A DNA stretch of 64,000 nucleotides. It comes from an uncultured Planctomycetia bacterium. Its GTDB lineage: Bacteria > Omnitrophota > Gorgyraeia > JABMRG01 > JAFGKX01. Positions within the stretch are counted from its first letter, which is position 1, and the number at the start of each line of letters is the position of its first letter. The stretch covers positions 17,441 to 81,440 of the forward strand of contig CAZMYR010000001.1 in the NCBI GenBank assembly GCA_964570585.1, given 5' to 3'. The notes beneath the pieces are model-generated. The model saw only the letters and a program-made list of their open reading frames with translations. It made no database searches and was not told the origin of the DNA. Both the position numbers and the translations under genes were made by a program. This document shows, piece by piece, positions 1-64,000 of this stretch.

Positions 1-3000
1 TAGTTTGTGGCTATGTTGAATTTAATCACTCCTGCTTTGGCTAATACAGCAAGTTCTTCCATATCGCCTTCGATGGTTTCCGGCTGGACAATAGCTACAT
101 TAAATCTCTCGGCTTCTTTTTGCAACTCTTCTGTAAGCCAGGGACTTATCTTGTCCACCTGTGGTATAGGAGCCAATGTCTTCATATCATAATCTATGCC
201 ATGGCCTGAGCCATTATTTGTGGCAATAAGGTCAAAAGATAGGTTCTTTAATTTAAGATACTCTCCCATTACCCTTATAACAGCAGGATGGGTCATCTTG
301 GGCTCAAGCTTACCGTCACGTCTTGGGTTTGGCACTTTCTTATCAACCTGGCCCACCTCTATCACTTTTCCAAAATGGCCAGTTAATTCAGGAGTATGTT
401 TATCCACTATCCTATCTATATATTCAAGCTGATGCGCTGTCTCTTCTGCGTTGCTGGTAGGAAGAAGTAGTAGCTTTTGTTTCTCGCTTATACTCTTTGA
501 GACTTCTGGGCTTAGGTCACCTGCTATAGTAGCCCTGGCAACTTCTCTCATTATTTTGTCATAAGCAGCAATAACTTCATCTTCCGAAATACTTTCCACA
601 GGGCTCTTTTCGGAGACACCTGGCCCACGAACATCTTTATACATACGAGCTTTCTTGCGTAAAACGCCAAAGGCTGCATTCATATTTCTAACAACGCTGT
701 CAATCTTCCCAGGCGCTCTATTACGTTTTTTCATATTCGAGATAACTGTTCCTCTTATATGGTCAAGTCTTGCCATATTGTCTTTATCATATGGATTTGC
801 CTTAAGAAAATCAGCGCCCCATTCAAGCGGCAGCATAGAGTTCCTCTCCAGGCTAACAACTAAATCCTCAGCAGGCGTGCCATTTTTCTCATAATAGTCT
901 AAGACGGCCTCACCAGCTACTCCATCATAAATAGTTGAAGCATCTATGCCTATTGAGGTAAACCCTGCTTCAATTAAGGATTCAATATCACTCTTTATTA
1001 TCGCGCGCTCTGCGCTGAGATTATCATTTAACCTCCTCTGGACGGCTTCCAAGATTTTCACATCAATAGTATCAATTCTTATCTTATCATTATATGTACC
1101 CTCACCATTTTCCTTCTCATATTCCTCTTTCAATATCGCCTTTGCGTCAAATAAATAATCTTCATACTGAAGACGGCCACCATGTAAAACCAACGGGTTT
1201 TTAAATCCAATTCGCTCTGCTACTTCTCTTACATAGGCAACCACTCTTTTTTCATGTAAAGCATAACTAAGCTGGGAACGACCTACTGCAAAAATAACAG
1301 CAGCATTTTGGGCCATCGCAGCCTTGAGATGACCCTCAATCTGATTATAGCTGACGATATCGGCTGCTATTAATGCCTTCCTTGCCTTTTTTACAGCCTC
1401 GAATGCATCATGCCCGGGGGTAAATAAGCCCTCTGAGGGCCCAATTATAGTAGCTGTGCCGGTTGAGCCGACAGTTTCTATATACTGGTCATCACGGTGC
1501 TGGATAAGTTCGGTGATGGCCTGCTGGACCTTCCCTCCAGCTTCTTGGATAAGCATCTGGCGTGCTTTATTAGCAGCCGCTTCATCCCCGCTAATTGTCT
1601 TACGATCCCACTTTCTTATCTCAGCAATCCTTTCTTCAGGTAGTTTGCCTGCCGAGGAGGATTTTGCTTCAGCTATTGGGAGACCAGTAAGCTCCAGTGG
1701 CAGTGGCTGTATGCCACTTGCATCCTTAGTAATCAAAAATCCGCTATGTCGGTCATTGAGGATGGCGTTGGGGTCAAAGGTTATGAATATCTCATTGGTA
1801 AGGAAAGGGACTTCGTCCCCTGCCACCAGGTGCGAAGCTTTTTCTACAGGAAGGCGATGGATAATCACAGAATCGCCATCTTCAATAAAGTCAGGTTTTG
1901 CTTGACCGGTCTGAATAAATTTGGCTTGAATGCCTGCTCCGTTAACATCAGTAACTTCAAATAGATAACGAGCCTTAAGCAGAAGCTTCTGTCCTATCTC
2001 TATATAAGGAAAGTCTTCTTCTTTGCGCAGGCGGGCTACATCCATAACCGCTAATTTGTCTTTTACTCGACGGGTTACATAACGAGCAGCGAGTAACTCA
2101 AGGCCTAACCTTCCCTTATCATCATAATCATAATTCAGGGCAGTATTATACTTTGCTGTCTTGGCCTTTAGGCTTCTTCCGTATATTTCGCGAATAGCCC
2201 TGGCAAGCTCGTCAGGAAGCCTATATCCAAGGAAGGTATCCACCATTTCTCCCAAGTCCTGCTCTTCAGGAATTAGCAAAGGATTATCAGAGCCAAGCAT
2301 CTTTTCAGTCCAGTGGACAATCCTGTCAAACCCCTCTTTTCTTTCGCCTTTAAAGCTGTAGAAGTAGCCAAGATTATCTCTATTTTTCACCCTTAAACCT
2401 TTTATTATTTTACCCTCAGCCAGGGCCTGTAAGGTCTCTTCAATTAATTGCTCGGCTAATCTATCCAGTTGTTTCTGAATTCTTTTAGGCAGTAACTGAT
2501 ATGCTAAACGAGGCAAGACTTCATAGACTATCCATAGGTCACGACTCAAGATTATAGCTGCTTCGCCTTTCTCCTTAGCTTCCTCGGTTAAAAGGTCGGT
2601 TGCATCAACCTGCTCAAAGAAGCCATACATCCAGGTTGCGATTGCATTACGAACCTCTATGCTATCTCCATCAACCCTGGTAATAATCTCATTCTGGGTA
2701 TTCGATTTTCTGCTTAAGAAAGAAACAAAATATTGTCCTTCATCGCATTTTACATAATATTTTGCACCATCTATCAAATCTAATGCGATTTCGCTTACAT
2801 TATGTAAGGTCATGCCGGTCAGCTTAATATCTACAGGCTGAGCAGGTTTATAGATGTAATAAAGCGAACCATATTTTCTTTTCCCTTCTTGATATTGGCG
2901 CCTGGTGCCGGCTTCTTCAAACCCTAATTTTCCAATATACTTCTTAAATCTCTCTAAGACCCTATTGACTACCTTTTGCTTTTCATAACGGCCAAAGTTA

Positions 3001-3344
3001 GCATGCGTTCCTATCCTAACCTCAGGGCTGGCAAAAGACTTGGGTAACTCATTGTATGCATCAAGGAATGCCCCGAATGTCCTATCTCCCATAACCATGG
3101 GGACCAGCATCTTATTGGTTATCTCCACTGCGCTCATTTCTGCTCCGCTTAAAGGTTCCATTCCGTGACCGCTAACCTCTGCCCCTCCACCAATGCGGGC
3201 ATTGTTACGGAGGTTTACCAGAAGATTGGACTTGCGGCCTCCAAAAATCAGAGTCTCCTCATTCTCTGCCATTATACTGCCTTCTGTCTGTTTCATTTCA
3301 TCCTTCACATAACCAAAACCTACCGGGCCCTCTAAAACATCCAT
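1..3344 (-). CDS. Partial large multidomain protein, >=1114 aa; the C-terminal part continues past the window start. Ends in a class-II (Zn) aldolase-like module.
   Basis: Hand translation of the minus strand, codons topping at positions congruent to 2 mod 3. Verified codon by codon for 3-1673 and 3120-3360, with spot checks at 2400-2460 and 2880-2940; no stop from the ATG at 3342-3344 to position 3. Starts MDVLEGPVGFGYVKDEMKQTEGS. A possible SD (AGGGGAA) lies 13 nt upstream. Class-II fructose/tagatose-bisphosphate aldolase family signatures: SLIEAGFTSIGIDAS (941-985), IATNNGSGHGIDY (~200-240), GVIKFNIATN (12-41). Linker motif AEAKSSSAGKLP at 1638-1673. Absent from the supplied ORF track because it runs off the edge. 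Confidence 0.55.
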   Translation of the reverse strand, partial: MDVLEGPVGFGYVKDEMKQTEGSIMAENEETLIFGGRKSNLLVNLRNNARIGGGAEVSGHGMEPLSGAEMSAVEITNKMLVPMVMGDRTFGAFLDAYNELPKSFASPEVRIGTHANFGRYEKQKVVNRVLERFKKYIGKLGFEEAGTRRQYQEGKRKYGSLYYIYKPAQPVDIKLTGMTLHNVSEIALDLIDGAKYYVKCDEGQYFVSFLSRKSNTQNEIITRVDGDSIEVRNAIATWMYGFFEQVDATDLLTEEAKEKGEAAIILSRDLWIVYEVLPRLAYQLLPKRIQKQLDRLAEQLIEETLQALAEGKIIKGLRVKNRDNLGYFYSFKGERKEGFDRIVHWTEKMLGSDNPLLIPEEQDLGEMVDTFLGYRLPDELARAIREIYGRSLKAKTAKYNTALNYDYDDKGRLGLELLAARYVTRRVKDKLAVMDVARLRKEEDFPYIEIGQKLLLKARYLFEVTDVNGAGIQAKFIQTGQAKPDFIEDGDSVIIHRLPVEKASHLVAGDEVPFLTNEIFITFDPNAILNDRHSGFLITKDASGIQPLPLELTGLPIAEAKSSSAGKLPEERIAEIRKWDRKTISGDEAAANKARQMLIQEAGGKVQQAITELIQHRDDQYIETVGSTGTATIIGPSEGLFTPGHDAFEAVKKARKALIAADIVSYNQIEGHLKAAMAQNAAVIFAVGRSQLSYALHEKRVVAYVREVAERIGFKNPLVLHGGRLQYEDYLFDAKAILKEEYEKENGEGTYNDKIRIDTIDVKILEAVQRRLNDNLSAERAIIKSDIESLIEAGFTSIGIDASTIYDGVAGEAVLDYYEKNGTPAEDLVVSLERNSMLPLEWGADFLKANPYDKDNMARLDHIRGTVISNMKKRNRAPGKIDSVVRNMNAAFGVLRKKARMYKDVRGPGVSEKSPVESISEDEVIAAYDKIMREVARATIAGDLSPEVSKSISEKQKLLLLPTSNAEETAHQLEYIDRIVDKHTPELTGHFGKVIEVGQVDKKVPNPRRDGKLEPKMTHPAVIRVMGEYLKLKNLSFDLIATNNGSGHGIDYDMKTLAPIPQVDKISPWLTEELQKEAERFNVAIVQPETIEGDMEELAVLAKAGVIKFNIATN

Positions 3345-3392
3345 ATGCAGACGGATTCCCTGCTTTAAATATTCTTGCTTCATCTTCTCCAC

Positions 3393-6300
3393 TAACAGCT
3401 TAAACCCAGCGTAGAATTTCACTTCAACATAAAATATTGTCCTCTGAGTATCTTTTTCGCCTAAACGCCTGGCTTTCTCTACATCCTGCCTGGCTATAGT
3501 CCTGGCGTACAAGGCCATCAGTTCATCGCCTTGAACCATCTTGGCTAATTGGGGCAGCCAGGTAATTAACCTGTCCTTGTCTTCATCGCCGATTATGGCT
3601 ATTTCTACATCTTTCTCTTCAAAGGTGGCCATCGCCTGTCGGACAAACCACGGTATATTAGGATAAGGTTCGCCATCCGGGAACATATAGTCAGGGTCAT
3701 CGTGGACTACCAAAACCTTTTGCCCTAAAGCTCTAAAGATAATCTGATCCATTCCCCCTGAACCATGCTGATAACCTAATCCAAGGGTGGGTAAGCTATA
3801 TTTCTCAAACGGTCGCTGCCAGCAGAGTAAAGGCCGTTCTGAAAACTTCTCATCAAACTCTTTCTGTTCAGCTCTAGAAAAGCCTAAACTCTTTCCTAAA
3901 TCTTTACGGATTGCCTCCCATTTATCATCCCAATCTAATTCCCGGGTAGCCATTATAAGCTCGCGTATTCCACCCTTCTGGTGGATAGCCCTTTTCCATA
4001 ACCATCCCCATATATCTCTTCCTAAACGAATATAGGCTATTGAATATAAATAGTGGGTATAGGCAACCTCTACTGCAGAGAGCACTTTTATTTCTCTCTC
4101 TTTCAGCTGTTCTTCTGGACAGGGCCTGGTTCTGCCAGCAATAATACCTTCTTTTAAACCCTGCATCTCCTCATCATTAATACTCAATACCTGGGCTAAG
4201 GTATGTTCCCTACCTTTTTTATCCAGTTTAATATCGAACCAGCTGAGCATCTGTTTCCAGCCGCTAAACTCCCAGGGGTTATGGCTGGCTGTGCCGTGGC
4301 CACCACCAAATAAAAGATGCTCTGCCTCTTTATAGGCTTCGAGTAAATCTCCTCTTCCTTCTCCTACACATATCCCATCATTCCAGAGCAGGTTGACAAT
4401 AAGATAATACATTGGGGTTGAGATAATACCTTTCTTTTCAAAATCTTCCGCCAATACATTAAATCTTTCCACATCTTCAGGGCGCAGACGTCCGGCATCA
4501 AGGTCTTCCTTTATCCATTTCATAGCACGGTCAAGGCCTTTCTTATTAGATTTTACTAAAAATACGTTTACTCCTGAATAAAGCAGGCCTAAGGCATAGA
4601 CATCTCTATGTTCCTGTATAGGTAGGCGGCATCCACCACTGACTAAACCCCAAACCTTTTCTCGAAGCTGCTGATGCAGTTTGGGATTTTTTTCTATTTG
4701 GCGTTTTAATTCTTCGTCTTTTAAACCCATGCCTTCTAACATAGTGGTACCTAATTCTATGGCTGAGGAGAAGATAAGCTTCTTAGACATCAAGGCCGGA
4801 TATCGCTCTGTAATCCCAGGAAGTTTTAAGTCTGTGGTTCTAAAAGCGGAGCGTAAATCATAGGTTCTATAGGAGAACCACTGGCCATGTTCCATAATAT
4901 CGAATCTTCTAATAATATCGCCCTCGCGAACCTCTATATGTTCCTGGATAGTAACTCCTTTTGCCTTAATCTCTCGGGTATCATCAAAAAGAATATTATC
5001 TACACATTGGAGTTTTCCCTCAGTCCTTTTTTCCTTATAGGTTATCTCATGGGGGTTATCAATGATTTCTACTCCTGCAAATGGCCTCATATGACCATTT
5101 TTCTCAGGAACTTCATTTAGGATATCACTTATCTCATTAAGGAGTTTAGCTGAATCTTTAACCGTTAAACCAAAGACTTGAGAAAAGCTTTCTACTCCTT
5201 CTTTCCTGCTTTTAGAAGACACTCTGTTAGCTGCTGTATATTGAGCATCTCTGGTCATTATCTGGTGATAGGCAACTATCTTGGTAAGCGTCTTGTATTG
5301 TTCTAAGTCAAACTCAGATTTATGTCTGCGGAGGGTTTCAGGATTATGAAGGGCTTGGGTAAGTATCGATAATTGATCGGTCTTCAAGTTTAATCCAGGG
5401 TGAAGCATAGCATAAAGCGAGGTCAACATCGTAAGTAATTCTTCTGGAGCTGCTTCTCCTTTTTCGAGTTCTGCTCTTCCTATCTCATAGCCGCCATTCT
5501 TCAGAACAGCATTATATGCAAAAATTGTCCGCCAGATATCGCCGGCTTCTAAATAAGCCTTAGCCACCGCCCGGTATAGATGGCGCCATTCCTCTGCCTC
5601 TACTTTTTGGGGTAGTTTACGTAATTCAGCGGCGTCGGCCTCTATATCTCCCCCGGTAACCTCTGCTAAAATCCCAAGTATCCGGCTATCATCCTTTGTC
5701 TCTTTGAATATATCCACTGCTAATGGTAGAAGCCGCAATATAAAGTGCAATCTTTCCAAGCGCTTAATCCTTCTGGATAAATCTTTTTCAGTCTCGGCAA
5801 CATCTACTCCGTGAGTTACATAACTGCCTGCTGAAGCAGATTTGGTGGCAATAGCACCAATAAGGCTTTTAACTTCTTCAACGGGCTTGAAGAACTTAAG
5901 AACCTCTGCTTCGCCTTTAGCGCTAAGTACATATCTGCCAACAGTTGATGGAACATAAAGCGATTGGCCCCTCTTAAGAGGGATATCTTTCCCGCCTGAG
6001 CTAATTACAACCTCGCCTTTTATAACAAGAATATCGTGAGAAGTACCTTCTACTGGCGCTACACTTAATTCAGCCTCAGCGCCTTTTCCTTTTCCATTAA
6101 GCGTAAATCTGTGCACATTAAAATATTCCTGGGGCCAGACATTGGGGTATGTGCCTTGGATAAGGACTTCTTCTTTTGCTATCAAATCCTTGCCATACCT
6201 ATCTCGCCATTTTCCACGCTCAATTTGAGGCTCTAAAACAAAATTCTTCTCCTCTGTTGTTGTATCCTTTAAACCTTTCCTGACGAACATCTCTATTGTC

Positions 6301-8702
6301 TCAAACTCTGCCTGTAAGAAATCCTCTTCTGATGTAGTCGGACGTCTGGCTAAATTCTTGCGCATTATTAAACCTTTATCTTTTTTGAAAACAATAGGGG
6401 TAAAAAAGTCTGCAAAACTGAAGGTAATATTAGAGGTTTGCTGGGGTTCAACAAGTATAAGATGTTCATTGCCGCCTGTATCGTTTACAGGTATTACTAT
6501 CCAGGCCTCATTTTTGGCCTGCGGTCCTTTCAGGGGATGGGTCTGGTGGGAAAGGCCAAATATACTATGGGGATAACCGACGGGTGAGAGGATAACCTTC
6601 CCGGGCTCAAGTTCAATCTCATTAAATAATTCTACAATCCTGGCTCTGACACCTTGGATTTTGCTCATAAGCTGGCTGATTCTACGCCGATTTTCACTCT
6701 TTACAAATTCTTTTATATCCGGGATAAAATCGCCCCACCATCTACTCCCTGCTTGATAGTCGCACCAGTTTGTATAAACTTCTTTAAATCTTCTAAAAGT
6801 CTCTTCGTCAGTTATATCCAGGAGGTTCTTTAGCTCATGCTCCAGCTCTCTCTCTTCCTTCAGCCACTCAATAAAAACTTCTATTCCGACCTCATTGAGC
6901 TTTTCGTTGAACCCCATATGTACTCTATCTACAAAGTTTGTGCATTCAAACTTCTCAAAATAACCCTTATCTAAAGACTCACCAAGCATTTCGGGATTAT
7001 ATCCGAGAAGTTCTTTTAATGTTATAGGAGCCACATCTCCTAACGCTGTATCAGGAATAGTTGATAAGCCATCGTTATGAGTTGAATTAAACCAGAGCTC
7101 TGCTATGGGGTTATTTTTATCTATCGGCCTGCCTAAAACTATCTGGTTGGCTATTCCGCCCCAGGCATAATTTTTTTCCGCAGGAGTAGTTATTAGGGGA
7201 CTGTATTTTGCCTGTTCTATCAAATCCTTAATCTGTTTTATTCTGGTTTTTGCCTGGTTATTAGTTATAAGTTCGGGTAGCGAATCATCTGAAACATGAA
7301 AGTGAATCTCCCCGATGTTTTCTACTACTGTTCTGATAAGGTCAGCTATCTTCTTCTCATTTAACTCTTGATAAAATGTAAGCAGGTCTTTCTTGCCTGT
7401 AAACTGCTCCAGCATCTCTGTAGGGTTACTAATCCAGATAGGTTTAGGTGCGTCTTCTATGGTCCTGAGCATATAGTGTTTACCACCGGTGGATATAGTA
7501 GTATACGGTGGAAATTCTGCGTTCTTAACAATAGTTGCAACTGCCCCTGCCAACATCGGATCATAAGCAGGGTTAATCTTTTTCATATCTTTTGGGTCAA
7601 GCTTAATCGATATATCATTAAATCTCAATCCCCCTAAATTTACCATAAAGTCGGCATATCCCGGAAGGGCAAATGTCCAGGAACCTGCACTGACCCTCTG
7701 GGCCAAGACCTCTATTATGTTACCCGCTTCATCATATAAGATATTAAACTGGATACCTTCCCCTTCTGTTACATATTTTATGTCCAGAGAAATACCTTGG
7801 TAGTGTCCTACTCCGGTGCTGGTTGCCTGGATTGAGCCTGGCATCATATCGTGCAGAAAGGAGGTTTCATGAATGGTGGATAATTTCTTTTCCCTGGTAA
7901 GTTTCTTAAGGACATCGGGCACCCCTATAAGGCAATGGGCCATAAGATAGATAAGCTGCTTATTTCTCGCTGTTTGGAATTTCTTTGAATCATAGCGGGT
8001 AAGGGTAGCAAAGGCTGGGTTTGAAACGCTGCCTACGCCAAGCTTATCAATGCCTTCTGTGCCTCTATGATAAAATCCGAGTCCGCCTTCTTCATCCACT
8101 ACCAAAAACGGCAAGGCACTGACATCCAGATAGCTTAATCCTTTAGGGCTGGTAGCCATTCTGTCCATATCTGCAGTAACTCCAAAGGCTTCTCCTTCTG
8201 GCACATCTCGCTTAATCCATGATATTATATTCAGGGCCTGTCCGGCCATAAGCTGGAGAGCCTTTGATATCTTTGAATTCTGCAAGGAAAGACTCAGCTT
8301 TATTACTGTTGTATAAAATTCTTTTACATAGGGCTCGATGGTTCTATTATCAATAAACTTTTCTTTTAACTCATTGCTTATGGCTTCAAGGGCCGAAGGC
8401 AACTGGACAGATTTATATGCATTAAATAAAACCTTCGCTGCCTCTTTTGCTTTATACCCACCAATAACCAGCTCTACCATGCTTTCTACTTCAAGCTTAC
8501 CTGCGGTGGAAAGATAAGACTTGCCTGTTGGTACCTCTGATAAACTACTTCTAATTTTTGCACCCACGGAAGAGGGTGTATTTCGTAGAGAAGTTGCTCT
8601 TAGGGCATCAGTATCAGCAAATGCAGTTGGCTGAATTGTGCTTACAGCGAATATTATCGCTACGATTAAACTTACCGCCTTCTTTAACACCCCTTTACCC
8701 AT
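3393..8702 (-). CDS. Secreted large multidomain protein (1769 aa) with an N-terminal signal peptide and two mannose-6-phosphate-isomerase-like cupin segments.
   Basis: Start ATG at 8700-8702, preceded by GAGGAG with a 7-nt spacer. An alternative in-frame ATG lies at 8727-8729. The frame was verified open codon by codon from 8702 down to the TAG at 3393-3395. N-terminus MGKGVLKKAVSLIVAIIFAVSTIQPTAFA-DTD has positive n-region, hydrophobic core and AXA cleavage site, typical of a signal peptide. A PMI class-I-like motif GLSHQTHPLKGPQAKNEAWIVIP lies near 6480-6560. A cupin barrel ending GQSLYVPST lies at 5941-6122. This ORF is NOT in the supplied ORF track. Confidence 0.6.
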
Positions 8703-8893
8703 TTTCAAATCTCCTCTTTTTTTTGTCATAGTCTTTCATAAATCTTTGCTTTGTTATGCTTAAGTTATAAAAGTCTTTAATTACCCGAATACAGCGCAAC
8801 CCTTTTGCCTCGGTTTGTCCCCCTCGAAAATTTTTTATGGAGACAGTAAAATCGAGGCCAAAGGGTTGTTTAAACGCTATAACTCTATAACCC

Positions 8894-11800
8894 TTATGCT
8901 GCTATCAGGGCAGCCCAGGCCTGGCGCTGGAGTCTCTCTATCTCTTCCTGGCTTAGTTTCTCAACACCTGGTAGAGTGGTTATTATAAGCTCAAAGACAC
9001 TCCAGGTACCTTCTCTTAGGGCTTGCTCAACTATAGCTTCTATAGTATTCTGGGTGTATTGCTGATACATCTTCTTTATAGCAGGGAACAGCTGGTTGAA
9101 GTTATCTTCATTGAGAGACAAAAGACCCCTGGCTACGGCAATAAGCTCTGCCATTGGAAGAAGTATATCATCTTTCTTAACCCCTATCTTAAAGAGTTTG
9201 ACATCAGCAAGCTGTTGTTTGTCTGAGATAAGGATGGTTTTCTTTCTGTTTAGGGTCTGTCTGTTTACATCAGCTAATAATACTATCTGGGTCTTTTTAG
9301 TTACTTGGCCTTTATCCTTAAAGGATAGGGCATATTCTAAGGCGTCACGGAGTCGGTGGTCTTTAAGCATAGAGATAACCGCCATCCTCTGTTTTATATC
9401 AGGAATGGCGTTGGCATCTACGATGATGGTGCCTTCTGATTCTATCCTGGCAATAGGGGCACAAACTCTGGCAAATTCTATTACACTGCGCTGGGTTGCT
9501 ATCTTAAGCTGGATAAGCTCTTCTTCAGCTGAGGTAAGAGTAGTTTCTACTTTTAACCTTGTTGCCTTTGCACTTAATTGAGTCAATTTCTGTAAAGACT
9601 CTGTAAGCAAGCTATCATTGAGTAGTTCTACCTCTCCAGGAACCTGGGTGGTCTCTTTAACCAGGGCGTCAAGAAGTATATTCTCGGCATTAAGTAATCC
9701 TCTATTAAGCTCTGCCAGAGCCCGGTTGCCGGCTGAGGAGGATTTATTAGGCTTGTCTGATGATTTCTCTCTGCCAACCATCATATCGTCCATAGCAAAG
9801 GCTTGCACTTTTTTAGCATAAGCCTTCTCTGCTTTTGTGTATTTGGCACCTGCTCTTCTAACTAAGATTTTCTCTGCATCAGGGAGTCGCTTCAATAATT
9901 CTTTTCTGGGCGCAGGACCGGCTACGAGATTCTGTTTCTGTAATTCAACTATCTGTTTTCCGGTAAGAATAGCTATGCCAGCCTCTGCAGATTTATCTCC
10001 GATTTTTTGCACCAGTGCAGCTACCGGCATAAACCCCTCTAACATATTTTGAAGATCCCTTACCTGATATAAAAGAATATAGGCACCCTCAGTTTCTTTT
10101 AGCGAAAGAAGGGTTATATTAAAATCGTCGCATTGTAAAAGTAGCAGCCCTTTCTGTCCAAGTTTAGCATCTTTTATAAACTGCTGGTCATATCCAAGTT
10201 TTGAAACCTGTTTTTTAAATCCAATTAACACATTGTATAAAAGCAGCAGCCGGGATGCCCTTACATCGTTCATAGGAATATCTAGAGCCAGCCTTACAAG
10301 AATCTCTGGTTCAATAACCTTAACTTCCTCACCGGCCAGTATTACACCCGATGAGGAGGATTTGGATGTGGAAATAGGTTTTGGCAGCAGTTTTGAAATA
10401 GCTGCTGTGTCAAGCTCAGAAACCAGCGTAAGGGGAAGGTCCTCGCTGGGTGGCAGGTATTTGGCGGCATAATCGCTCTTCCAATCCTCTGTGAGCTGAG
10501 CTATCACCTCTTGCTTAACTATAGCATAGATACTGCCTTTTTTATCAATGCGTACATCAACAAGAGGGTTATCGCCTTTATATTCCCACCATTTGTGTCC
10601 TATCTTGAATCCTGGCTTGTCAGTCTCCATATAGAGAGAACCCGGCCCAAAGATAACCGCACTTGTGTCTATGCCGGACTTTAAGAATATGAGTTTGCCT
10701 TGCTTAATTTTGACAGATGACCAGCGAGTATTGGCTCCCATATTTCTGAAGGTATAATCACCGGCGGAAGGTATCTCTGGTATATAGTTGATTGCATGCA
10801 ATGTCTTAAGAAGACTTGAGAAAATTTCTGTAACCGACTTCTGTTCCTTAGCTCCGGCTGAGGAGGACTTGGTAGATTCCTGTATCTGTGCCATTAGTCT
10901 AATATTGCGCTCTAATACATTTTGAGCAGCAATATTATGAGCTAAAGCCGGTTTATCCTTAATTCTTTCCATCTGTTCTTTTGTAAGATGTGCTATATAA
11001 GCCTCAAGGCTACGCCTGCCCTTTATTCTCATCAATATTTGTATATCTGCAAAACCAGACAGTTCTGCCTTCAAAAAGCTAATGTATGCGTTATCAATTC
11101 CGGGCATACGAAAACATCCAGTAATCTCAAAAGGTGTGTGTTCAAACATACTTTGAATCATTCGCTCATTCAAAGATATGTCTCCTACGCTTCTGGCTTC
11201 ACGGCTTAATTTTTCAAAATTGTCAAATGGGAAATTTTCTTTTATATGAGCAAAAACAAGTCCATTATTCGCCAGATTCTCGCGTGTAATATCTTCGACT
11301 TTAATACCAACATCACCTATCCGGACTATCTTGCCGGCTGACGAGGATTTGCCTGCAACAGGTATTATTGCTACCTCAGGAACTAACTCAAAGACAGCCC
11401 AGAGGTCATATCTGTTGGGTTTTCCTAATTCAATAAAGCTGCCACCACCTTCCCAGCGATGTTGACCATATGCTACTACACCACCTGCCGTGGTAACAGG
11501 TTTACCTGTTTCAGGGTCAAATCCCCAGAATGGACCATGGGCATGGCCTCTTGGCAGGGGAAGATATGCTGGCTTTCCACTCTCATTATAATAGACCATA
11601 CCGCCCTTACCGGTTCCATTGCGCATACAGAAGTGAATCTCACCAAATGTGGTGTCTTTGGTTAGTTCGCTATGGTCGTGGTCTGCACAGTTTACACCCT
11701 GGCCTGCGGTCCAGAACTGGATATAACAGACCTTTTTCTCTTCACCGTTTATTATCTCTATACCCTTGAGGTTATAGAAAGCTAAATTATCAAAATGCTC

Positions 11801-58729: not shown

Positions 58730-59100
58730 AACTTCTATTATATCTCAAATGGTCCTGGAGGCCTTGACAGTCAACTACCCCACGCCTAAAGGTGGAGGGC
58801 TTGTGAGAATAAGCCTGGTTGACTAGGGGGCATTGAAAGATGCAGAAGTTAAGAGAAAGAAGGATAACCAACACACCTACGGTTATTACGCACGACCGTA
58901 GCAACTGTGGTCTGTCATTAAACAGCCCTGAGGGTAGGGACAGTGTGGCAGGCTTAAAAACCTCTCTTAACAGCCCCGATGCGTCTCTAACTGCGAGTCC
59001 CGCCCTTTTACAAAAGGGCGGGACGAGAGGACACGCAGGACAGAACCCGAGGGTATCTGTCGTTTACCCCCACACCAAAAGTTTTGGTGTGGGGGTTTAT
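58730..59100 (+). ncRNA. Candidate omega-RNA (OMEGA guide/scaffold RNA) upstream of, and overlapping, the iscB start
   Basis: Strongly structured. Perfect 13-bp hairpins GTCCCGCCCTTTT/ACAAAAGGGCGGGAC (58997-59024) and CCCCCACACCAAAAG/TTTTGGTGTGGGGG (59067-59095). The track's 5' extension of the iscB ORF (58840-59088) translates to low-complexity, non-protein-like sequence. The extent is approximate. Confidence 0.4.
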
Positions 59101-60315
59101 GTCCTCAGTAAAAAGGGCAAGCCACTCATGCCCTGTTCGCCAAGAAAGGCAAGAGTGCTTCTCAAAGAGACCAAGGCAAGGGTTGTAAAGAGGGCTCCCT
59201 TCACAATAAAGCTTAATATCGCCACGGGAGAAGCAGAGCAACCGATTACTCTTGGTGTTGACAGCGGATACAACTCATTGGGCTTATCAGCAGTATCAAA
59301 AGATAAAGAGCTTTATAGAGCTCAAGTAAGGCTAAGAGAAGACTTGGTAAAACTTAATTCAGAACGAAGGCAGTATCGCCGGGGGAGGAGATACCGCAAA
59401 ACATGGTACAGAAAGCCCAGATTTCTTAACCGAAAGAAACCCCCAGGATGGTTGGCACCTTCCATCCAGCACAAATTGGACTCACATATCAAATTAATCA
59501 CCAAGGCCAAAGAGATACTGCCCATTTCAAAGATTAGTATTGAAGTGGCAGCATTTGACATCCAAAAGATTAAGAACCCTGACATTGAAGGCGAGGGTTA
59601 TCAAAAAGGCAAACAGGCGGGATTCTGGAATGTAAGGGAGTACGCACTTCACCGGGATAACCACCAGTGTCAGCACTGTAATGGCAAATCCAAATCCTCG
59701 GTATTGGAGCTACACCATATCATATCAAGACAGACAGGAGGAGACAGACCTGAAAATCTGATAACTTTATGTTCTATCTGCCACGATAAGGTATCAAAAG
59801 GCCAATTAGAACTTAAAGCCGAACCATCCAAGGGATTCAAAGCTGAAACCTTTATGTCAACAGTTAGATGGAAGTTGATTAATAAGCTGCGAGACTCTGG
59901 TAATATGGTAACACACACTTATGGTTATGTAACAAAAAGCAAGAGGATAGAGTTGGGGATACCAAAAAATCACACCAACGATGCCTTTGTGATAGCAGGT
60001 GGGACTACTCAGAAAAGGACAACATCGGAAGATTTCATCAAACAGGTCAGAAGGAGTAACCGTAAGTTGTTTAAAGGAGACAGGAGTCAGATAAGGAATA
60101 CGGCCGAGAGGTTTGTCTGTGGATTTCAGAGGTTTGATAAAGTGCTATACAATGGTGTGGAGTGCTTCATTTTTGGCAGAAGAAAAACAGGCTATTTTCA
60201 TCTAAGAAAATTGGATGGAACTAAAATTCATTCTTCAGCAAAACAAACAAAGCTAACTCTGCTTGAGAGCGCAAAAACTTTACTGATAGAAAGAAGGCTG
60301 GCTCTCCTCCCCTGA
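59089..60315 (+). CDS. iscB: IscB RNA-guided nuclease (PLMP domain, split RuvC with inserted HNH)
   Basis: The proposed GTG start at 59089 gives MGVYVLSKKGKPLMPCSPRKARVLL, the PLMP motif. Other motifs: RuvC-I LGVDSGYNSLGLSAV; Arg-rich bridge helix RRQYRRGRRYRKTWYRKPRF; RuvC-II ISIEVAAFD; HNH CQHCNG...LELHHI...NLITLCSICH; RuvC-III NHTNDAFVIAGG. The track ORF is 58840..60315; stop TGA at 60313-60315. Confidence 0.75.
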   Translation: MGVYVLSKKGKPLMPCSPRKARVLLKETKARVVKRAPFTIKLNIATGEAEQPITLGVDSGYNSLGLSAVSKDKELYRAQVRLREDLVKLNSERRQYRRGRRYRKTWYRKPRFLNRKKPPGWLAPSIQHKLDSHIKLITKAKEILPISKISIEVAAFDIQKIKNPDIEGEGYQKGKQAGFWNVREYALHRDNHQCQHCNGKSKSSVLELHHIISRQTGGDRPENLITLCSICHDKVSKGQLELKAEPSKGFKAETFMSTVRWKLINKLRDSGNMVTHTYGYVTKSKRIELGIPKNHTNDAFVIAGGTTQKRTTSEDFIKQVRRSNRKLFKGDRSQIRNTAERFVCGFQRFDKVLYNGVECFIFGRRKTGYFHLRKLDGTKIHSSAKQTKLTLLESAKTLLIERRLALLP

Positions 60316-60407: not shown

Positions 60408-61535
60408 ATGATTTACATATGGAAGCAAAAAAAATGGCCTCAGTTAAAATGGCAAAGCGATAAACTGCTGCCATCTTTAAGCCAGGCACGCTTCCTTCAA
60501 GGGGAACTGTTAAGCAAGATCCGTTCTCTGGGCTTAAACCAGGGCAAGGAACCAAGTGCTGAAATACTGGTAGAGGAGACTGTTAAAACCGCTGCTATTG
60601 AAGGAGTCCGGCTGGATAAGGATGCTGTGCGTTCATCCGTAGCGAGAAGATTAGGCCTGCCTACAGCAGGTTTAAAATCACCAGATAAAGACGCAGAAGG
60701 CCTTGTCAGCGTGCTCCTGGATGCTACTAGAAATTATAAAAAACCACTTACTGTCAAACGCTTAAAATCATGGCAGGCGGCACTATTTCCGACAGGTTAC
60801 TCAGGGCTTTCTAAGATAAGGGTAGGAAAATGGCGTGGAAAAAGTCCGATGCAAGTAGTCTCAGGACCTATTGGTCGTAAGAGAGTTCATTTTGAGGCCC
60901 CGCCATCAGAAAGAATAGATACAGAAATAAAAAAGTTCATAAAATGGTGGCAGAAACCCCCAAAGAACTTAGACAGCTTATTAAGGGCAGGCATTGCCCA
61001 TTTCTATTTTGTTACCATTCATCCTTTTGAAGATGGCAATGGCCGTATAGCCAGGGCATTAACAGATATGGCCTTATCTCAGGATGAGAATCTTCCAAAG
61101 AGGTATTATTCTCTTTCAACCAGTATAATGGCAGGAAGAAAGGCATATTACGATATCTTGGAGAAATGCCAAAGAGGCACGCTTGATATAACAGAATGGC
61201 TGTTGTGGTTCCTGAAATTCTATTTAAAGGCAATTGAGGAATCAGAAAAGGCTATTCAAAAATCATTGCAAAAGGCAGAATTTTGGCAAAAGCATGCTCA
61301 AACCAACCTGAATAATAACCAACGGAAAGTAATTAATCGCTTGCTTGATGCCGGTCCAAGTGGCTTTATAGGAGGCTTAACCACGCGAAAATACGTAGCA
61401 ATGACAAAGACAAGCAGGGCCACGGCTTATAGGGATATCTCTGATCTGGTAAGAAAGAAGATACTGGCTCGCTCTAAAGCTAAAGGCAGAAGCGTCTCCT
61501 ACGAGCTCATCTTTGTTGAAAAATTACAGACGTAA
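60408..61535 (+). CDS. fic: Fic/DOC family protein (AMP-transferase-type Fic domain with DUF4172-like N-terminus and C-terminal wHTH-like tail)
   Basis: The Fic active-site motif HPFEDGNGRIARAL (HxFx[DE]GNGRxxR) is present. The N-terminus MIYIWKQKKWPQLKW is typical of DUF4172-Fic proteins. GAGGTG lies 6 nt upstream of the ATG. Confidence 0.8.
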   Translation: MIYIWKQKKWPQLKWQSDKLLPSLSQARFLQGELLSKIRSLGLNQGKEPSAEILVEETVKTAAIEGVRLDKDAVRSSVARRLGLPTAGLKSPDKDAEGLVSVLLDATRNYKKPLTVKRLKSWQAALFPTGYSGLSKIRVGKWRGKSPMQVVSGPIGRKRVHFEAPPSERIDTEIKKFIKWWQKPPKNLDSLLRAGIAHFYFVTIHPFEDGNGRIARALTDMALSQDENLPKRYYSLSTSIMAGRKAYYDILEKCQRGTLDITEWLLWFLKFYLKAIEESEKAIQKSLQKAEFWQKHAQTNLNNNQRKVINRLLDAGPSGFIGGLTTRKYVAMTKTSRATAYRDISDLVRKKILARSKAKGRSVSYELIFVEKLQT

Positions 61536-61621: not shown

Positions 61622-62806
61622 TTATTTTTCTTTTTTCTTTTCTTGCACAAATTTCCTCTGAAGATAATCTACGACTTGTTTAAACTTGTAAAGCCTGTCG
61701 GCATCCTCATCGGGAATATCAATGCCAAGCTCTTCTTCAAAGGTCATTGCGATTTCAATGCTGGCTAAAGAATCCACACCTAAATCCTTTACAAGATGGG
61801 CATTATCATGGATTAAGTCTTTTGATATGCCTAATTGTTCCGCGATAATTTTTCTGGCTACATCCGGAATATCTTCTTTCGTTATCTCTTTTTTCTTTTC
61901 TTCCGGCGGTTTAGGAGACGCTTTATATTTTAGTCCGAGCGCCGGTATTCTAACAGCTTTATCTGTCTTAAAATATAAGTTGTTTTTTATGGCAGTGTCT
62001 CTTACTAATCTACCGAGTTTATCTAACCTAACATCAACTGCCGGAGGAAGATTTGAGAGATTAATCCCTTCTGTCTTCTCGTCCTCTGGTTTATTACTGT
62101 AAACAATTATATCTTTCGGTTTATCGTCCGATTTAGTTATGGCTTTATATATCTCACTTTTAGCCCCTAGCACTATTTGATTCCCTAATACAATATCAGG
62201 CCTGAAATTGTGAAGCTCTTTTTTTATGTCTTCTTCTACCCCCCCTATTTTGCTTGAATCAAATGTTTTGACGCCTACGAACAACATCTGCATTGAGTAT
62301 TCACCGCCGCATTTTTCTTTACTCTCAAAATATATGTTTTTAGGAACAAAGTAGTTAAGAGCAAGGTCTATAAACAAAAGTTTCGCCTTCGGCATTATAT
62401 AAGGATCATTATATATAGGGATTTCTTCTTTTTTAATTATTCTTCTGCCTTCTAAAACATCTTTTGCTGTCTCAACTATAGTATTGGGGCTAAATGGTTT
62501 TGCCATAAAGGCATCATATTTAAGCCCCTTTACTTTTTCTTCATATTGTTCACCATATCCTGTTAAAATTACAACTTTTGTTTTTGGGTACTTTTCGTTT
62601 ATTATCTCTAAAACACCAGGGCCGTCTAAACCTTTCATTTTCATATCTAATATGACAAGGTCGATACCTTTTGATTCTAGTTTCTTCACGGCTTCTTCGC
62701 CGGATAAGGCAATAGCTACACTATGGCCTTCTTTTGAAAAGAAATACTCAAGGGTAGATGTAAGTTCTTTTTCATCGTCTATAACAAGGATATTTTCATT
62801 TGGCAT
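61622..62806 (-). CDS. Response regulator receiver domain fused to an unknown middle domain and a C-terminal acyl-carrier-protein (phosphopantetheine-binding) domain
   Basis: REC domain: ILVIDDE...DLVILDMKMKGLDG...KPF. C-terminus: IAEQLGISKDLIHDNAHLVKDLGVDSLASIEIAMTFEEELGIDI is a classic ACP helix-II DSL motif. No DNA-binding output domain was recognised. Confidence 0.7.
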   Translation of the reverse strand: MPNENILVIDDEKELTSTLEYFFSKEGHSVAIALSGEEAVKKLESKGIDLVILDMKMKGLDGPGVLEIINEKYPKTKVVILTGYGEQYEEKVKGLKYDAFMAKPFSPNTIVETAKDVLEGRRIIKKEEIPIYNDPYIMPKAKLLFIDLALNYFVPKNIYFESKEKCGGEYSMQMLFVGVKTFDSSKIGGVEEDIKKELHNFRPDIVLGNQIVLGAKSEIYKAITKSDDKPKDIIVYSNKPEDEKTEGINLSNLPPAVDVRLDKLGRLVRDTAIKNNLYFKTDKAVRIPALGLKYKASPKPPEEKKKEITKEDIPDVARKIIAEQLGISKDLIHDNAHLVKDLGVDSLASIEIAMTFEEELGIDIPDEDADRLYKFKQVVDYLQRKFVQEKKKEK

Positions 62807-62825: not shown

Positions 62826-64000
62826 TTATATAGCTGGTAAAGTTATTTTAAAATATGTTCCTTTGCCATATTCCGATTCAACGTCAATTGTTCCTTTATG
62901 GTTTTCTATCATTGCTTTTATCACAGATGAGCCTATGCCCGTGCCTTTTTCGGTTGTAGCTTTGGTAGTAAAAAATGGTAAAAAAAGCTGGTCCGATTCC
63001 TCTTTTGTCATACCAATACCATTATCGGATAACTCTATACGCCAGAGATTGTTATCTGTAAAAGCCTTTATTTTTGTTTCAGGTATATAATCTTTTTGGT
63101 TTTGTTTCTTTTGTTGTTCCGCATCATGAGCGTTGTCTAAGAGATTAAAGAATATATCCTGAAGTTGCGCCATATCACCTTTTATTTTAAGGGGCGTTTT
63201 CTCTACATCGGTTTTGAGATTAAGTTCTGTAATATCGAATTTGTATGATAAAAGTTCAATAGTTGCAGTTATAACCTCATCGAGATCGACTAGCTTATAT
63301 TTTGTCTCCTTCCGGGAAAATACTGTTAAGTGTTTGGTGATGTTGCCTCCTAAATTAGCGTTTTCTGCAATGCTTTTCATTGCTTTTTCGGCTCTTACCA
63401 AGAAAGTTTTATTCTCATTGGATAAACTTACTTTTTTCATTCCATCCTGCATAATATCAAGTGCCTCTTCTGCTTTTGCCCAGATGGCCTGAAAACGGTT
63501 GTTAATTTGATGCCCCATCATAGAACCCATCTGTCCTATAGAGCGAAGCCGGTGTTCATGAAACTGCTGGGCTAGAGATTTTCCGGTTTCTTCATAAAAT
63601 ATGGCATTTTCAATGGCTAAAGCTGCCTGATTAGCCAATACCTGAAATACTGCTAAGTCATCTGATGTATACATATCGCCTGAGAGTTTCTTGCCCATTG
63701 CCAGGAAGCCTATTAACTCATTTTGGATGAAACTAGGAATTATTATATCAGCTTGCATGTCTTTCATGTTTTTAGCTATGTTCTTTCCCTCCGGCATAAG
63801 AGCTGCCTCATCATATATTAAAATGTCCCTATGGCCTTTAAGCCATTTTATTAAGGGTATGTTGCTTTGTATCTTCCCTGCAGGGAGATTTGATATATTT
63901 TGTCTGTTTCTTTTTGCCCTTAGGTTATATTCGTCTGCTTCGGGATTTCGTAGATATATATAAGCATGACTAACACCAATGGCTTTGCTCATTACGCGTA
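62826..64000 (-). CDS. GAF-domain sensor histidine kinase (HisKA + HATPase_c); may extend beyond the window end
   Basis: H-box FHEHRLRSIGQMGSMMGHQINN, N-box LLDNAHDA, G-boxes DNGIGM and GTGIGSSVI. The first ATG is at 63990-63992 and no stop lies between it and 64000. The gap to the downstream regulator is 19 bp. Confidence 0.75.
   Translation of the reverse strand, partial: RVMSKAIGVSHAYIYLRNPEADEYNLRAKRNRQNISNLPAGKIQSNIPLIKWLKGHRDILIYDEAALMPEGKNIAKNMKDMQADIIIPSFIQNELIGFLAMGKKLSGDMYTSDDLAVFQVLANQAALAIENAIFYEETGKSLAQQFHEHRLRSIGQMGSMMGHQINNRFQAIWAKAEEALDIMQDGMKKVSLSNENKTFLVRAEKAMKSIAENANLGGNITKHLTVFSRKETKYKLVDLDEVITATIELLSYKFDITELNLKTDVEKTPLKIKGDMAQLQDIFFNLLDNAHDAEQQKKQNQKDYIPETKIKAFTDNNLWRIELSDNGIGMTKEESDQLFLPFFTTKATTEKGTGIGSSVIKAMIENHKGTIDVESEYGKGTYFKITLPAI

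Follow-up and report, generated by a model that had tools for sequence, protein, structure and literature searches.

The closest described systems are the giant multi-enzyme proteins of Omnitrophota, for which two accounts served as comparison: the "Archaeovorin" type (West-Roberts et al. 2023, bioRxiv 10.1101/2023.11.21.568195) and the "multi-enzyme metabolic cluster" class (Nielsen & Lui 2026, bioRxiv 10.64898/2026.06.07.730766). For Archaeovorins, PGM/PMM, fructose-bisphosphate-aldolase and glucose-phosphate-isomerase domains are listed (10.1101/2023.11.21.568195); the same PGM/PMM-, aldolase- and glucose-phosphate-isomerase-like set occurs in gene A, the last in a row of four large genes on one strand (10,643, 1,900, 3,292 and 3,924 aa) in the locus studied here, and it also matches the sugar-metabolism module of the Nielsen & Lui catalogue (10.64898/2026.06.07.730766). 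Many sugar-metabolism enzyme-like domains are tiled on one gene A polypeptide, whose signal- or anchor-like N-terminus is a further likeness to Omnitrophota giant proteins, and the run of very large same-strand genes around it is like their loci. The SecA-like domain and transmembrane (TM) segments of neighbouring gene D, as well as a flanking IscB/HEARO mobile element, agree with what is described for Omnitrophota giants and their mobile-DNA flanks.

At 3,924 aa, gene A lies under the size thresholds of the two papers (Nielsen & Lui require at least 10,000 aa, West-Roberts et al. at least 30,000 aa), and within the array only gene D, at 10,643 aa, passes the lower one. A Pfam and hydrophobicity scan revealed neither a SecA-like domain nor internal TM helices in gene A, and HEAT, TPR, GT5 and peptidase domains were not detected in it by Pfam. 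The locus appears to belong to the already known Omnitrophota multi-enzyme giant-protein kind, of which it would be a mid-sized further example. Among 24 homologues of gene A, roughly one in three has a named source, in every case Candidatus Omnitrophota or Omnitrophica, and one related metagenome-assembled genome (MAG) is labelled "uncultured Planctomycetia".

Within the window, that is, the whole 64,000-nucleotide stretch analysed, gene A is a single uninterrupted coding sequence on the minus strand (3..8702) of 2,900 codons that continues past the left edge. Its ATG at 8702, for which ATG 8729 is an in-frame alternative, lies 8 nt downstream of a Shine-Dalgarno (SD)-like AAGAGGAG read from the sequence (8711..8718, minus strand), and the public gene call likewise begins MGKGVLKK. 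The latter belongs to an NCBI-derived protein of 3,924 aa (P0001) on a contig of 113,767 bp, which is 100% identical to gene A residues 1-2900, adds 1,024 further residues beyond the window part and, as called by its depositor, spans the region in dispute. An earlier note had suspected a single gene of at least 2900 aa, and both the open frame and this identical public protein bear that suspicion out. It had also correctly remarked that the ORF list has no minus-strand entry within 1-8893 despite ~2,900 open codons; gene A is missing from the list because ORFs that run off the end of the source go unlisted, and the empty minus-strand track over 1-8893 is explained by an ORF that leaves the window. 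ORF lists that omit edge-truncated ORFs can in this way hide the largest genes.

That note nevertheless placed a possible gene junction at 3340-3430, on the grounds that the frame read from ATG 8702 ended near 3393. The frame does not end there: the minus-strand phase of ATG 8702 (8702-3k) holds 0 stops over the 2,911 codons from 8735 to base 3, as opposed to 248-293 stops in the other two minus phases over 8735..3, and a phase-by-phase count gives 0 stops in the gene phase, the remaining phases having 241 and 287. Across 3340..3430 (minus strand) the translation runs through continuous codons from about Tyr1758 to Asp1788 and reads QRTIFYVEVKFYAGFKLLVEKMKQEYLKQGIRLHMDVLE, with FYVEVKFYAGFK spanning the alleged break. 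The TAG that had been given as 3393-3395 in fact occupies 3392..3394 (minus strand), where it lies in phase +1 across Leu1770 (TTA) and Val1771 (GTG), inside CTG-TTA-GTG, and is no stop of the gene. A peptide said to lie there in a different phase, KFYAGFKLLVEKMKQEYLKQ, is indeed open and protein-like, but shares the phase of both flanks; and the seamless sequence obtained by joining the pieces was correct, although it is simply the true translation, with nothing joined.

The origin of the supposed terminus, RTIFYVEVNSTLGLSC followed by a stop, can be traced to one base. When a single A is removed from GTGAAATTC (3422..3414), at GTG-AAA-TTC, the translation becomes QRTIFYVEVNSTLGLSC followed by a stop, which is letter for letter the earlier string; the terminus is therefore an artefact. 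These codons, GTG AAA TTC for Val1761-Lys1762-Phe1763 (3414..3422, minus strand), lie within a conserved EVKF motif. In a by-eye translation the AAA was almost certainly taken as AA, which slid the reading into the +1 phase; nine codons further on, the slipped reading ran into the first TAG of that phase, and it regained the true phase at an internal Met. A +1 slip anywhere in gene A reaches a stop within nine codons with P ~0.54, so that the TAG near 3393 carries no significance. More generally, hand translation of long stretches can drop a base and then "recover", producing an apparent compensated frame disturbance.

The site lies inside a four-domain module that resembles alpha-D-phosphohexomutases (PGM/PMM) but carries insertions (2583..4652, minus strand; aa ~1351-2040) and was identified by motifs, an AF2 model and Foldseek. 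Its four catalytic motifs, all on the minus strand, follow in canonical order, two on either side of the alleged junction: the TASHNP phosphoserine loop (4275..4292; Ser1473), the DEDKDR metal (Mg2+) loop (3570..3587; aa 1706-1711), the AEVSGH sugar loop (3165..3182; aa 1841) and the RKSNT phosphate loop (2697..2711; RKSNTQ at aa 1998), after which gene A has Asn in place of the Pro usual in relatives (RKSNTQP). D356, D358, D360 and R361 of DEDKDR, together with E492, S494, G495 and H496 of AEVSGH, are invariant in alignment A1. The module is modelled with a pLDDT of 85.8 and a pTM of 0.87. In this model the alleged junction is a well-ordered strand-helix-strand element of domain III (TIFYVE / AGFKLLVEKMKQEYLK / MDVLEG; strand at model residues 405-410, helix 415-430, strand 437-442; pLDDT blocks 94/82/94/95/85), placed after the Mg loop (aa 1706) and ahead of the sugar loop (aa 1841) of the same enzyme module.

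A Foldseek search of the PDB with this model returned phosphohexomutases for all of the top 50 matches (E down to 5e-16), with 9du5, 1wqa, 2f7l and 1pcj at E 5e-16 to 4e-13 and target-normalised TM scores of 0.66-0.68; at the sequence level, phmmer against PDB sequences recovered 1wqa at 3e-5. Family profiles score lower: Pfam gives PGM_PMM_II 21 bits, under its cut-off of 29.3, and does not report domains I, III and IV, while Arch_GlmM and PgmG match only partially (Arch_GlmM 31.6 bits, its cut-off being 439). The four-domain fold and the TASHNP, DxDxDR, ExSGH and RxSNT loops in canonical order are shared with solved phosphohexomutases such as Pyrococcus horikoshii PMM/PGM (1wqa) and P. aeruginosa PMM/PGM (1k35). 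Unlike these, however, the gene A module is ~650-690 residues long rather than ~455, has large insertions within domains I and II as well as ahead of domain IV, forms part of a 3,924-aa polypeptide and shares only 11-14% sequence identity with the solved enzymes. The retention of all its catalytic motifs is compatible with the embedded enzymes being active.

Homology crosses the site without a break. Because the first 24 homologues of gene A align only to aa ~27-967 and none covers aa 1351-2000 (local phmmer of this segment against them found nothing), the junction could not be tested on them, and a wider HMMER scan with aa 1351-2000 as query was therefore run against 1.84 billion representatives. 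At least 10 of its 24 hits cover the alleged junction (query 410-440), among them P0026, which is 64% identical over query 3-650. The aligned consensus over the site is F..EVKFS......GG..I..P.GF..IK, with EVKF, EVKY or DIKC aligned at the alleged slip in 13 sequences. Two genomic loci extend this to codons: in L001 one frame stays open for at least 5,244 aa and is colinear, with 68% identity over aa 955-2325, and L002 is likewise colinear, with 66% identity over aa 960-2023. Across the site, 12 relatives and these two loci remain homologous in one frame, and the codon-level alignment there has no gaps in close relatives, L001, L002 and P0026 being among the residue-for-residue matches. VKF is encoded in the three loci by GTG/GTT/GTC, AAA/AAG and TTC, and Met1787 is kept in both L001 and L002 (CAT ATG GAT). 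The earlier note had proposed looking for homologues that also terminate at this position, which presupposed a real stop; none do, and all read through in one frame.

Relative to L001, the 31 junction codons carry 4, 5 and 14 substitutions at codon positions 1, 2 and 3, respectively, and aa 1400-2000 carry 131, 82 and 296. Such a third-position excess is expected only if the gene A frame is translated. Base calls were taken as deposited, and the fold, together with two MAGs that stem from other projects, backs the frame independently. Positions 3340-3430 are thus almost certainly ordinary uninterrupted coding sequence in mid-gene with no junction, a reading that no feature of the sequence contradicts and which removes a false lead, there being no assembly error, frameshift or gene boundary at this place. 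Separately, an apparent frame break in L002, at the equivalent of aa ~2023-2102, is not biological: 38 N (7562-7599) fill a gap in the scaffold there.

Among the other readings of the site, the least improbable, though still very improbable, would keep the gene continuous and add internal initiation at Met1774 (3381..3383, minus strand) or Met1787 (3342..3344, minus strand), yielding a shorter product too. A GGAG just upstream of ATG 3383 speaks for it, and TGGAGAAG, which had been called a good SD, does precede that ATG (3383..3381); yet this element consists of the end of the Val1771 codon followed by those of Glu1772 and Lys1773, and its GGAG core ends 3 nt before Met1774, a spacing that is too short. 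A start inside domain III would moreover split a folded enzyme module, and since an SD-like core precedes six further internal ATGs at a better spacing (5-16 nt), such SD-ATG pairings in gene A occur by chance.

Two separate genes, the upstream one ending at the TAG near 3393 and the next starting at ATG 3344 or at ATG 3383 with TGGAGAAG as its SD, can be given scarcely any credence. Both ATGs exist and are in phase, the only other argument for this reading being the earlier hand translation; but the TAG is out of frame, no in-frame stop occurs in 8735..3, and the two ATGs are 2 of the 62 in-frame internal Met codons of gene A, so that the "restart" at 3342-3344, although present in the gene phase, is internal Met1787 and restarts nothing. 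The close GGAG spacing and the coding nature of the supposed SD count against this reading as well, as do the position of the site in mid-domain and the homologues that read through it. A pair of compensating indels, introduced by misassembly of a MAG and shifting 3345-3422 out of the phase of its flanks, deserves equally little belief: MAG assemblies may carry indels in general, but nothing in this sequence supports them here, 3345-3422 being in phase with both flanks and the peptide aligning residue by residue with L001, L002, P0026 and others. The Lys codon, AAA in gene A and AAG in both other loci, is intact, and a run of 3 nt is too short to count as an indel-prone homopolymer.

The weakest reading, a programmed +1 ribosomal frameshift site, has nothing in its favour and a negligible probability, given that it needs the zero frame to close, which here stays open for 2,900 codons, whereas the +1 phase shuts after 9 codons and holds 8.3 stops per 100 codons. 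In programmed +1 frameshift genes such as prfB, the only likeness to gene A is the earlier note's impression of an SD-like element before a supposed shift; unlike them, gene A lacks an in-frame stop, a second frame and a conserved shift site. As no break exists, the three explanations that had been offered for one (compensating indels, two genes or a +1 frameshift site) are moot.

The continuous gene A encodes a protein in which a hydrophobic N-terminus is followed by cPGI-like cupin, PMI-like, PGM/PMM-like and class-II-aldolase-like modules. The first of these elements is a signal-peptide- or membrane-anchor-like segment, MGKGVLKKAVSLIVAIIFAVSTIQPTAFA (8616..8702, minus strand), with TM-like hydrophobicity; it contains the sole TM-like hydrophobic segment of the protein (aa 4-22, KD 1.87), from which we infer that the product is exported or anchored. 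It is followed by a conserved module made of a helical bundle and a cupin barrel (7143..8552, minus strand; aa 51-520), recognised from homologues, a predicted structure and its structural matches. This module is common to at least 25 large Omnitrophota proteins, with homologues aligning to aa ~50-965 of gene A, has 30 invariant alignment columns and is predicted with a pLDDT of 85 and a pTM of 0.86. Among structural matches of some extent, those to cupin-type phosphoglucose isomerases of archaea are the best (1x82, 1x7n and 1j3r; E 4e-5 to 2e-4, target TM 0.52-0.64).

A class I mannose-6-phosphate-isomerase-like region (5910..7175, minus strand; aa ~510-931) is suggested by weak matches below curated cut-offs, with MPI_cupin_dom at 1.3e-5, Cupin_2 and, at aa 510-579, TIGR00218 manA at 1.4e-7 (Pfam/NCBIfam). 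Closer to the window edge, aa 2432-2507 (1182..1409, minus strand) match the N-terminal part of class II fructose-bisphosphate aldolases (PF01116, 27.4 and 33.1 bits against a cut-off of 25.5, partial at profile positions 5-79 of 277), cbbA matches at aa 2431-2590, and the aldolase-like module probably continues toward the edge. Since phmmer against PDB sequences gave nothing for aa 1-1350 or aa 2353-3021, this assignment depends on the partial Pfam match; and because Pfam/NCBIfam scores for the PGM/PMM, PMI and cupin families fall under curated cut-offs, the module assignments depend mainly on motifs and predicted structure. That the modules of gene A are active as enzymes is presumed.

As to the rest of the array, gene D combines a divergent SecA_DEAD / SecA_PP_bind domain with ~28 TM-like segments, its domain scan having covered the N-terminal 3,667 aa, and gene B joins a GlmU-like nucleotidyltransferase to an AUDH cupin. 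A TM-like segment was scored at the N-terminus of genes C and D; that of gene B looks hydrophobic by eye, its score being under threshold. A search of the stretch separating genes B and A gave no terminator-like site and weak promoter-like matches (9/12 positions). The four large genes are presumably co-transcribed.

A hexapeptide, KSSSAG, occurs in gene A at aa 2347-2352 (1647..1664, minus strand), and its generalised form K[AS]SS[AS]G is present 13 times across the giant genes A, B and D, where the number of exact KSSSAG copies expected from composition in A and B together is 0.0004. A full-text literature search for KSSSAG found no paper, and the K[AS]SS[AS]G linker motif does not appear in the accessible portions of either giant-protein paper (10.1101/2023.11.21.568195; 10.64898/2026.06.07.730766). 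That the copies are lineage-specific processing or modification sites in the large proteins A, B and D is a long shot; if so, each multi-enzyme protein would, once exported, be cleaved between its enzyme modules as a polyprotein, or be covalently modified there. West-Roberts et al. propose post-translational cleavage only in general terms (10.1101/2023.11.21.568195). The copies themselves have differing codons and unrelated flanks, and several of them sit at module ends.

The minus-strand gene at 3..8702 (gene A) continues as a single open frame through positions 3340-3430, and the break alleged there by an earlier note is a reading artefact: the region holds no frame disturbance, frameshift site or gene boundary, and no assembly problem is indicated. 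When stops were computed for the three minus-strand phases over 1-9000, the phase of gene A (ATG 8702) contained none from 8735 to base 3 (2,911 codons) and the remaining two contained 293 and 248; translation of the minus strand over 3200-3560 in this phase gives the disputed stretch, unbroken, as QRTIFYVEVKFYAGFKLLVEKMKQEYLKQGIRLHMDVLE. The TAG reported to end the frame at 3393-3395 actually lies at 3394..3392 in phase +1, where it straddles two codons of the gene, taking TA from TTA (Leu1770) and G from GTG (Val1771). Removal of one A from GTG-AAA-TTC (3422..3414) produces QRTIFYVEVNSTLGLSC*, identical to the peptide originally reported, so that the apparent disturbance amounts to a one-base slip in hand translation; phase +1 contains 8.3 off-frame stops per 100 codons, enough for a slip at any point to hit a stop within nine codons ~54% of the time. 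The supposedly different open phase, KFYAGFKLLVEKMKQEYLKQ, is the true phase of gene A, and the proposed SD, TGGAGAAG, is made up of the end of Val1771 and of Glu and Lys codons, its GGAG ending 3 nt before Met1774. A restart codon, ATG 3344, does exist in phase, but it encodes the internal Met1787 of gene A and is no new start; the gene has 62 in-frame Met codons, and SD-like cores are found 5-16 nt upstream of six other internal ones. Two genes, a +1 frameshift site, and compensating indels or an assembly error had all been put forward as explanations, and there is no frame break for any of them to explain.

The suspicion that one gene encodes 2,900 aa or more was well founded, in that a public NCBI protein (P0001; 3,924 aa, from an assembly contig of 113,767 bp) matches all 2,900 window-encoded residues with 100% identity, the depositor's gene caller having placed one gene across the site with 1,024 codons more past the window's left edge. 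As had also been correctly observed, the ORF list has no minus-strand entry in 1-8893, gene A being missing because ORFs running off the source ends are not listed. The first 24 other homologues were uninformative on the site, their alignments covering gene A aa ~27-967 only; with aa 1351-2000 as query against 1.84 billion representative proteins, 24 matches were obtained, of which at least 10 cross the site in one stretch, and the homologue P0026 shows 64% identity across query residues 3-650. In the alignment of homologues the motif F..EVKF falls exactly on the alleged slip, with EVKC or DIKC replacing EVKF in distant phosphomannomutase-like proteins. A scan of species-representative genomes returned two loci, L001 (CAZEQA010000002.1), which stays open in one frame for at least 5,244 aa and has 68% identity to gene A aa 955-2325, and L002 (MHFD01000013.1, Omnitrophica bacterium RBG_13_46_9), with 66% identity to aa 960-2023. 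Both are colinear with gene A at the site, codon for codon, and on the question of whether homologous loci encode one fused protein, homologues and both loci alike read through. Relative to L001, gene A differs 4/5/14 times at codon positions 1/2/3 within the 31 codons of the junction and 131/82/296 times across aa 1400-2000, and this third-position excess is the hallmark of purifying selection acting on the gene A frame. An apparent split of L002 into two overlapping frames is a scaffolding artefact and no real division of the orthologous gene: it coincides with a 38-N scaffold gap (7562-7599), on either side of which the sequence matches gene A.

The site falls within a PGM/PMM-like module (aa ~1351-2040). 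By PDB sequence search, aa ~1465-1740 match phospho-sugar mutases (1wqa, E 3e-5), the alignment including the serine loop (TASHNP) and the metal loop (D-x-D-x-D-R); all four alpha-D-phosphohexomutase catalytic loops, which are invariant in alignment A1 of the homologues, are found in canonical order, namely TASHNP (Ser1473), DEDKDR (aa 1706-1711), AEVSGH (aa 1841-1846) and RKSNTQ (aa 1998-2003), and their intactness in the sequence is compatible with activity. An AlphaFold2 model of aa 1351-2000 (15-sequence alignment; mean pLDDT 85.8, pTM 0.87) folds the disputed residues into strand TIFYVE, helix AGFKLLVEKMKQEYLK and strand MDVLEG (block pLDDT 94/82/94/95/85), and its top 50 Foldseek matches in the PDB are phosphohexomutases only (9du5, 1wqa, 2f7l, 1pcj; E 5e-16 to 4e-13, TM 0.66-0.68 on target). 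In the model the alleged junction thus belongs to domain III, with the metal loop before it and the sugar loop after it in one and the same enzyme module; a gene boundary at this point would split a folded domain.

For gene A the start codon is ATG 8702 (-), which has AAGAGGAG 8 nt upstream; the in-frame ATG at 8729 is a weaker candidate. The only hydrophobic segment of the gene A product is the N-terminal MGKGVLKKAVSLIVAIIFAVS. The N-terminal module (aa 51-520), whose conservation extends to 25 or more large Omnitrophota proteins, is modelled as a helical bundle and a cupin barrel (pLDDT 85). Among its extended structural matches the best are Pyrococcus/Thermococcus phosphoglucose isomerases of the cupin type (E ~4e-5, TM 0.52-0.64 on target), a lead suggesting likeness of fold only and no family membership. 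Weak class I mannose-6-phosphate isomerase signals (aa ~510-931) precede the mutase module. After the latter comes a module resembling class II fructose-bisphosphate aldolase (from aa 2432 to 2507 and beyond; PF01116, 27-33 bits, cut-off 25.5); a further ~900 residues gave no matches. In L001, the ORF holding the block equivalent to aa 955-2325 (923-16654) begins with ~860 aa unrelated to gene A and carries the cupin module downstream of that block (aa 2402-2790, 34% identity), preceded by two TM helices, so that modules are shuffled between close relatives.

Three further large genes lie upstream on the same strand: gene B (8894-18772; 3,292 aa), gene C (1,900 aa) and gene D (25175-57106; a 10,643-aa ORF), the first of the four. 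No terminator-like site was found between genes B and A. Gene B encodes an unusual combination for a single polypeptide: a GlmU-like nucleotidyltransferase domain for sugar 1-phosphates (aa 1901-2178, E ~3e-21) and, directly after it, an AUDH (aldos-2-ulose dehydratase/isomerase) cupin (aa 2205-2463, E 4.7e-37). A Pfam scan of the N-terminal 3,667 aa of gene D identified a divergent SecA_DEAD / SecA_PP_bind / Helicase_C region (aa ~987-1728), and ~28 TM-like segments occur in three clusters of the protein. Genes C and D have a TM-like segment scored at the N-terminus; that of gene B is hydrophobic by eye and scores below the TM threshold.

We suggest that the gene A product is a putative Sec-exported or membrane-anchored scaffold, which would carry in series several enzymes that interconvert hexose phosphates (G6P-F6P, F6P-M6P, hexose-6-P to hexose-1-P, FBP cleavage) and may act together with the gene B nucleotidyltransferase. 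The Archaeovorins of West-Roberts et al. 2023 bear SecA DEAD-like domains and many TM regions as well as PGM/PMM, fructose-bisphosphate aldolase and glucose-phosphate isomerase domains, and in Nielsen & Lui 2026 the sugar-metabolism module of the 'multi-enzyme metabolic cluster' class includes PF02878/02879/02880. The Omnitrophota giant-protein loci of the former and this class of the latter both match the gene A-D locus. Gene A itself is below the length thresholds of the two studies and has no SecA-like or TM content of its own. Gene A is best regarded as a medium-sized member of an Omnitrophota giant-protein locus, a new example of an already known kind of gene.

The hexapeptide K[AS]SS[AS]G occurs 13 times on the minus strand: four times in gene A (1647-1664 and three copies past the window edge), six in gene B (9728-9745, 10346-10363, 10853-10870, 11333-11350, 13940-13957 and 18584-18601), three in gene D (26009-26026, 26915-26932 and 54773-54790) and never in gene C; composition predicts 0.0004 exact KSSSAG copies in genes A and B. 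Because the copies differ in codons and have unrelated flanks, what is conserved is the peptide. A number of them mark the ends of modules, such as right after the gene B AUDH cupin and before the gene A aldolase-like module, making the hexapeptide a candidate linker, processing or modification site. None was present in 47 homologues and the two related loci examined, L001 having TM helices instead after the same module end, and no paper was found to mention the motif.

Beside the gene D start, an OMEGA/IS200-IS605-type element adjoins the giant-gene array. Its ORF (58840..60315, +; 491 aa), with Pfam RRXRR (aa 86-257, 1.2e-63) and HNH (aa 277-319) domains, is predicted to encode an IscB-like RNA-guided nuclease. 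Immediately 5' lies a full-length HEARO (omega) RNA (58770..58991, +; Rfam RF02033, E 3.8e-24, bit score 119.7, gathering score 83) that overlaps the mechanically called ORF start, so the true protein start is probably near 59000-59095. Further along are genes for a Fic/DOC and DUF4172 protein (60408..61535, +), a GAF and HATPase_c kinase-like protein (62826..63992, -) and, between them, a protein (61622..62806, -) whose response-regulator receiver is joined to an ACP-like, phosphopantetheine-binding domain, an uncommon fusion.
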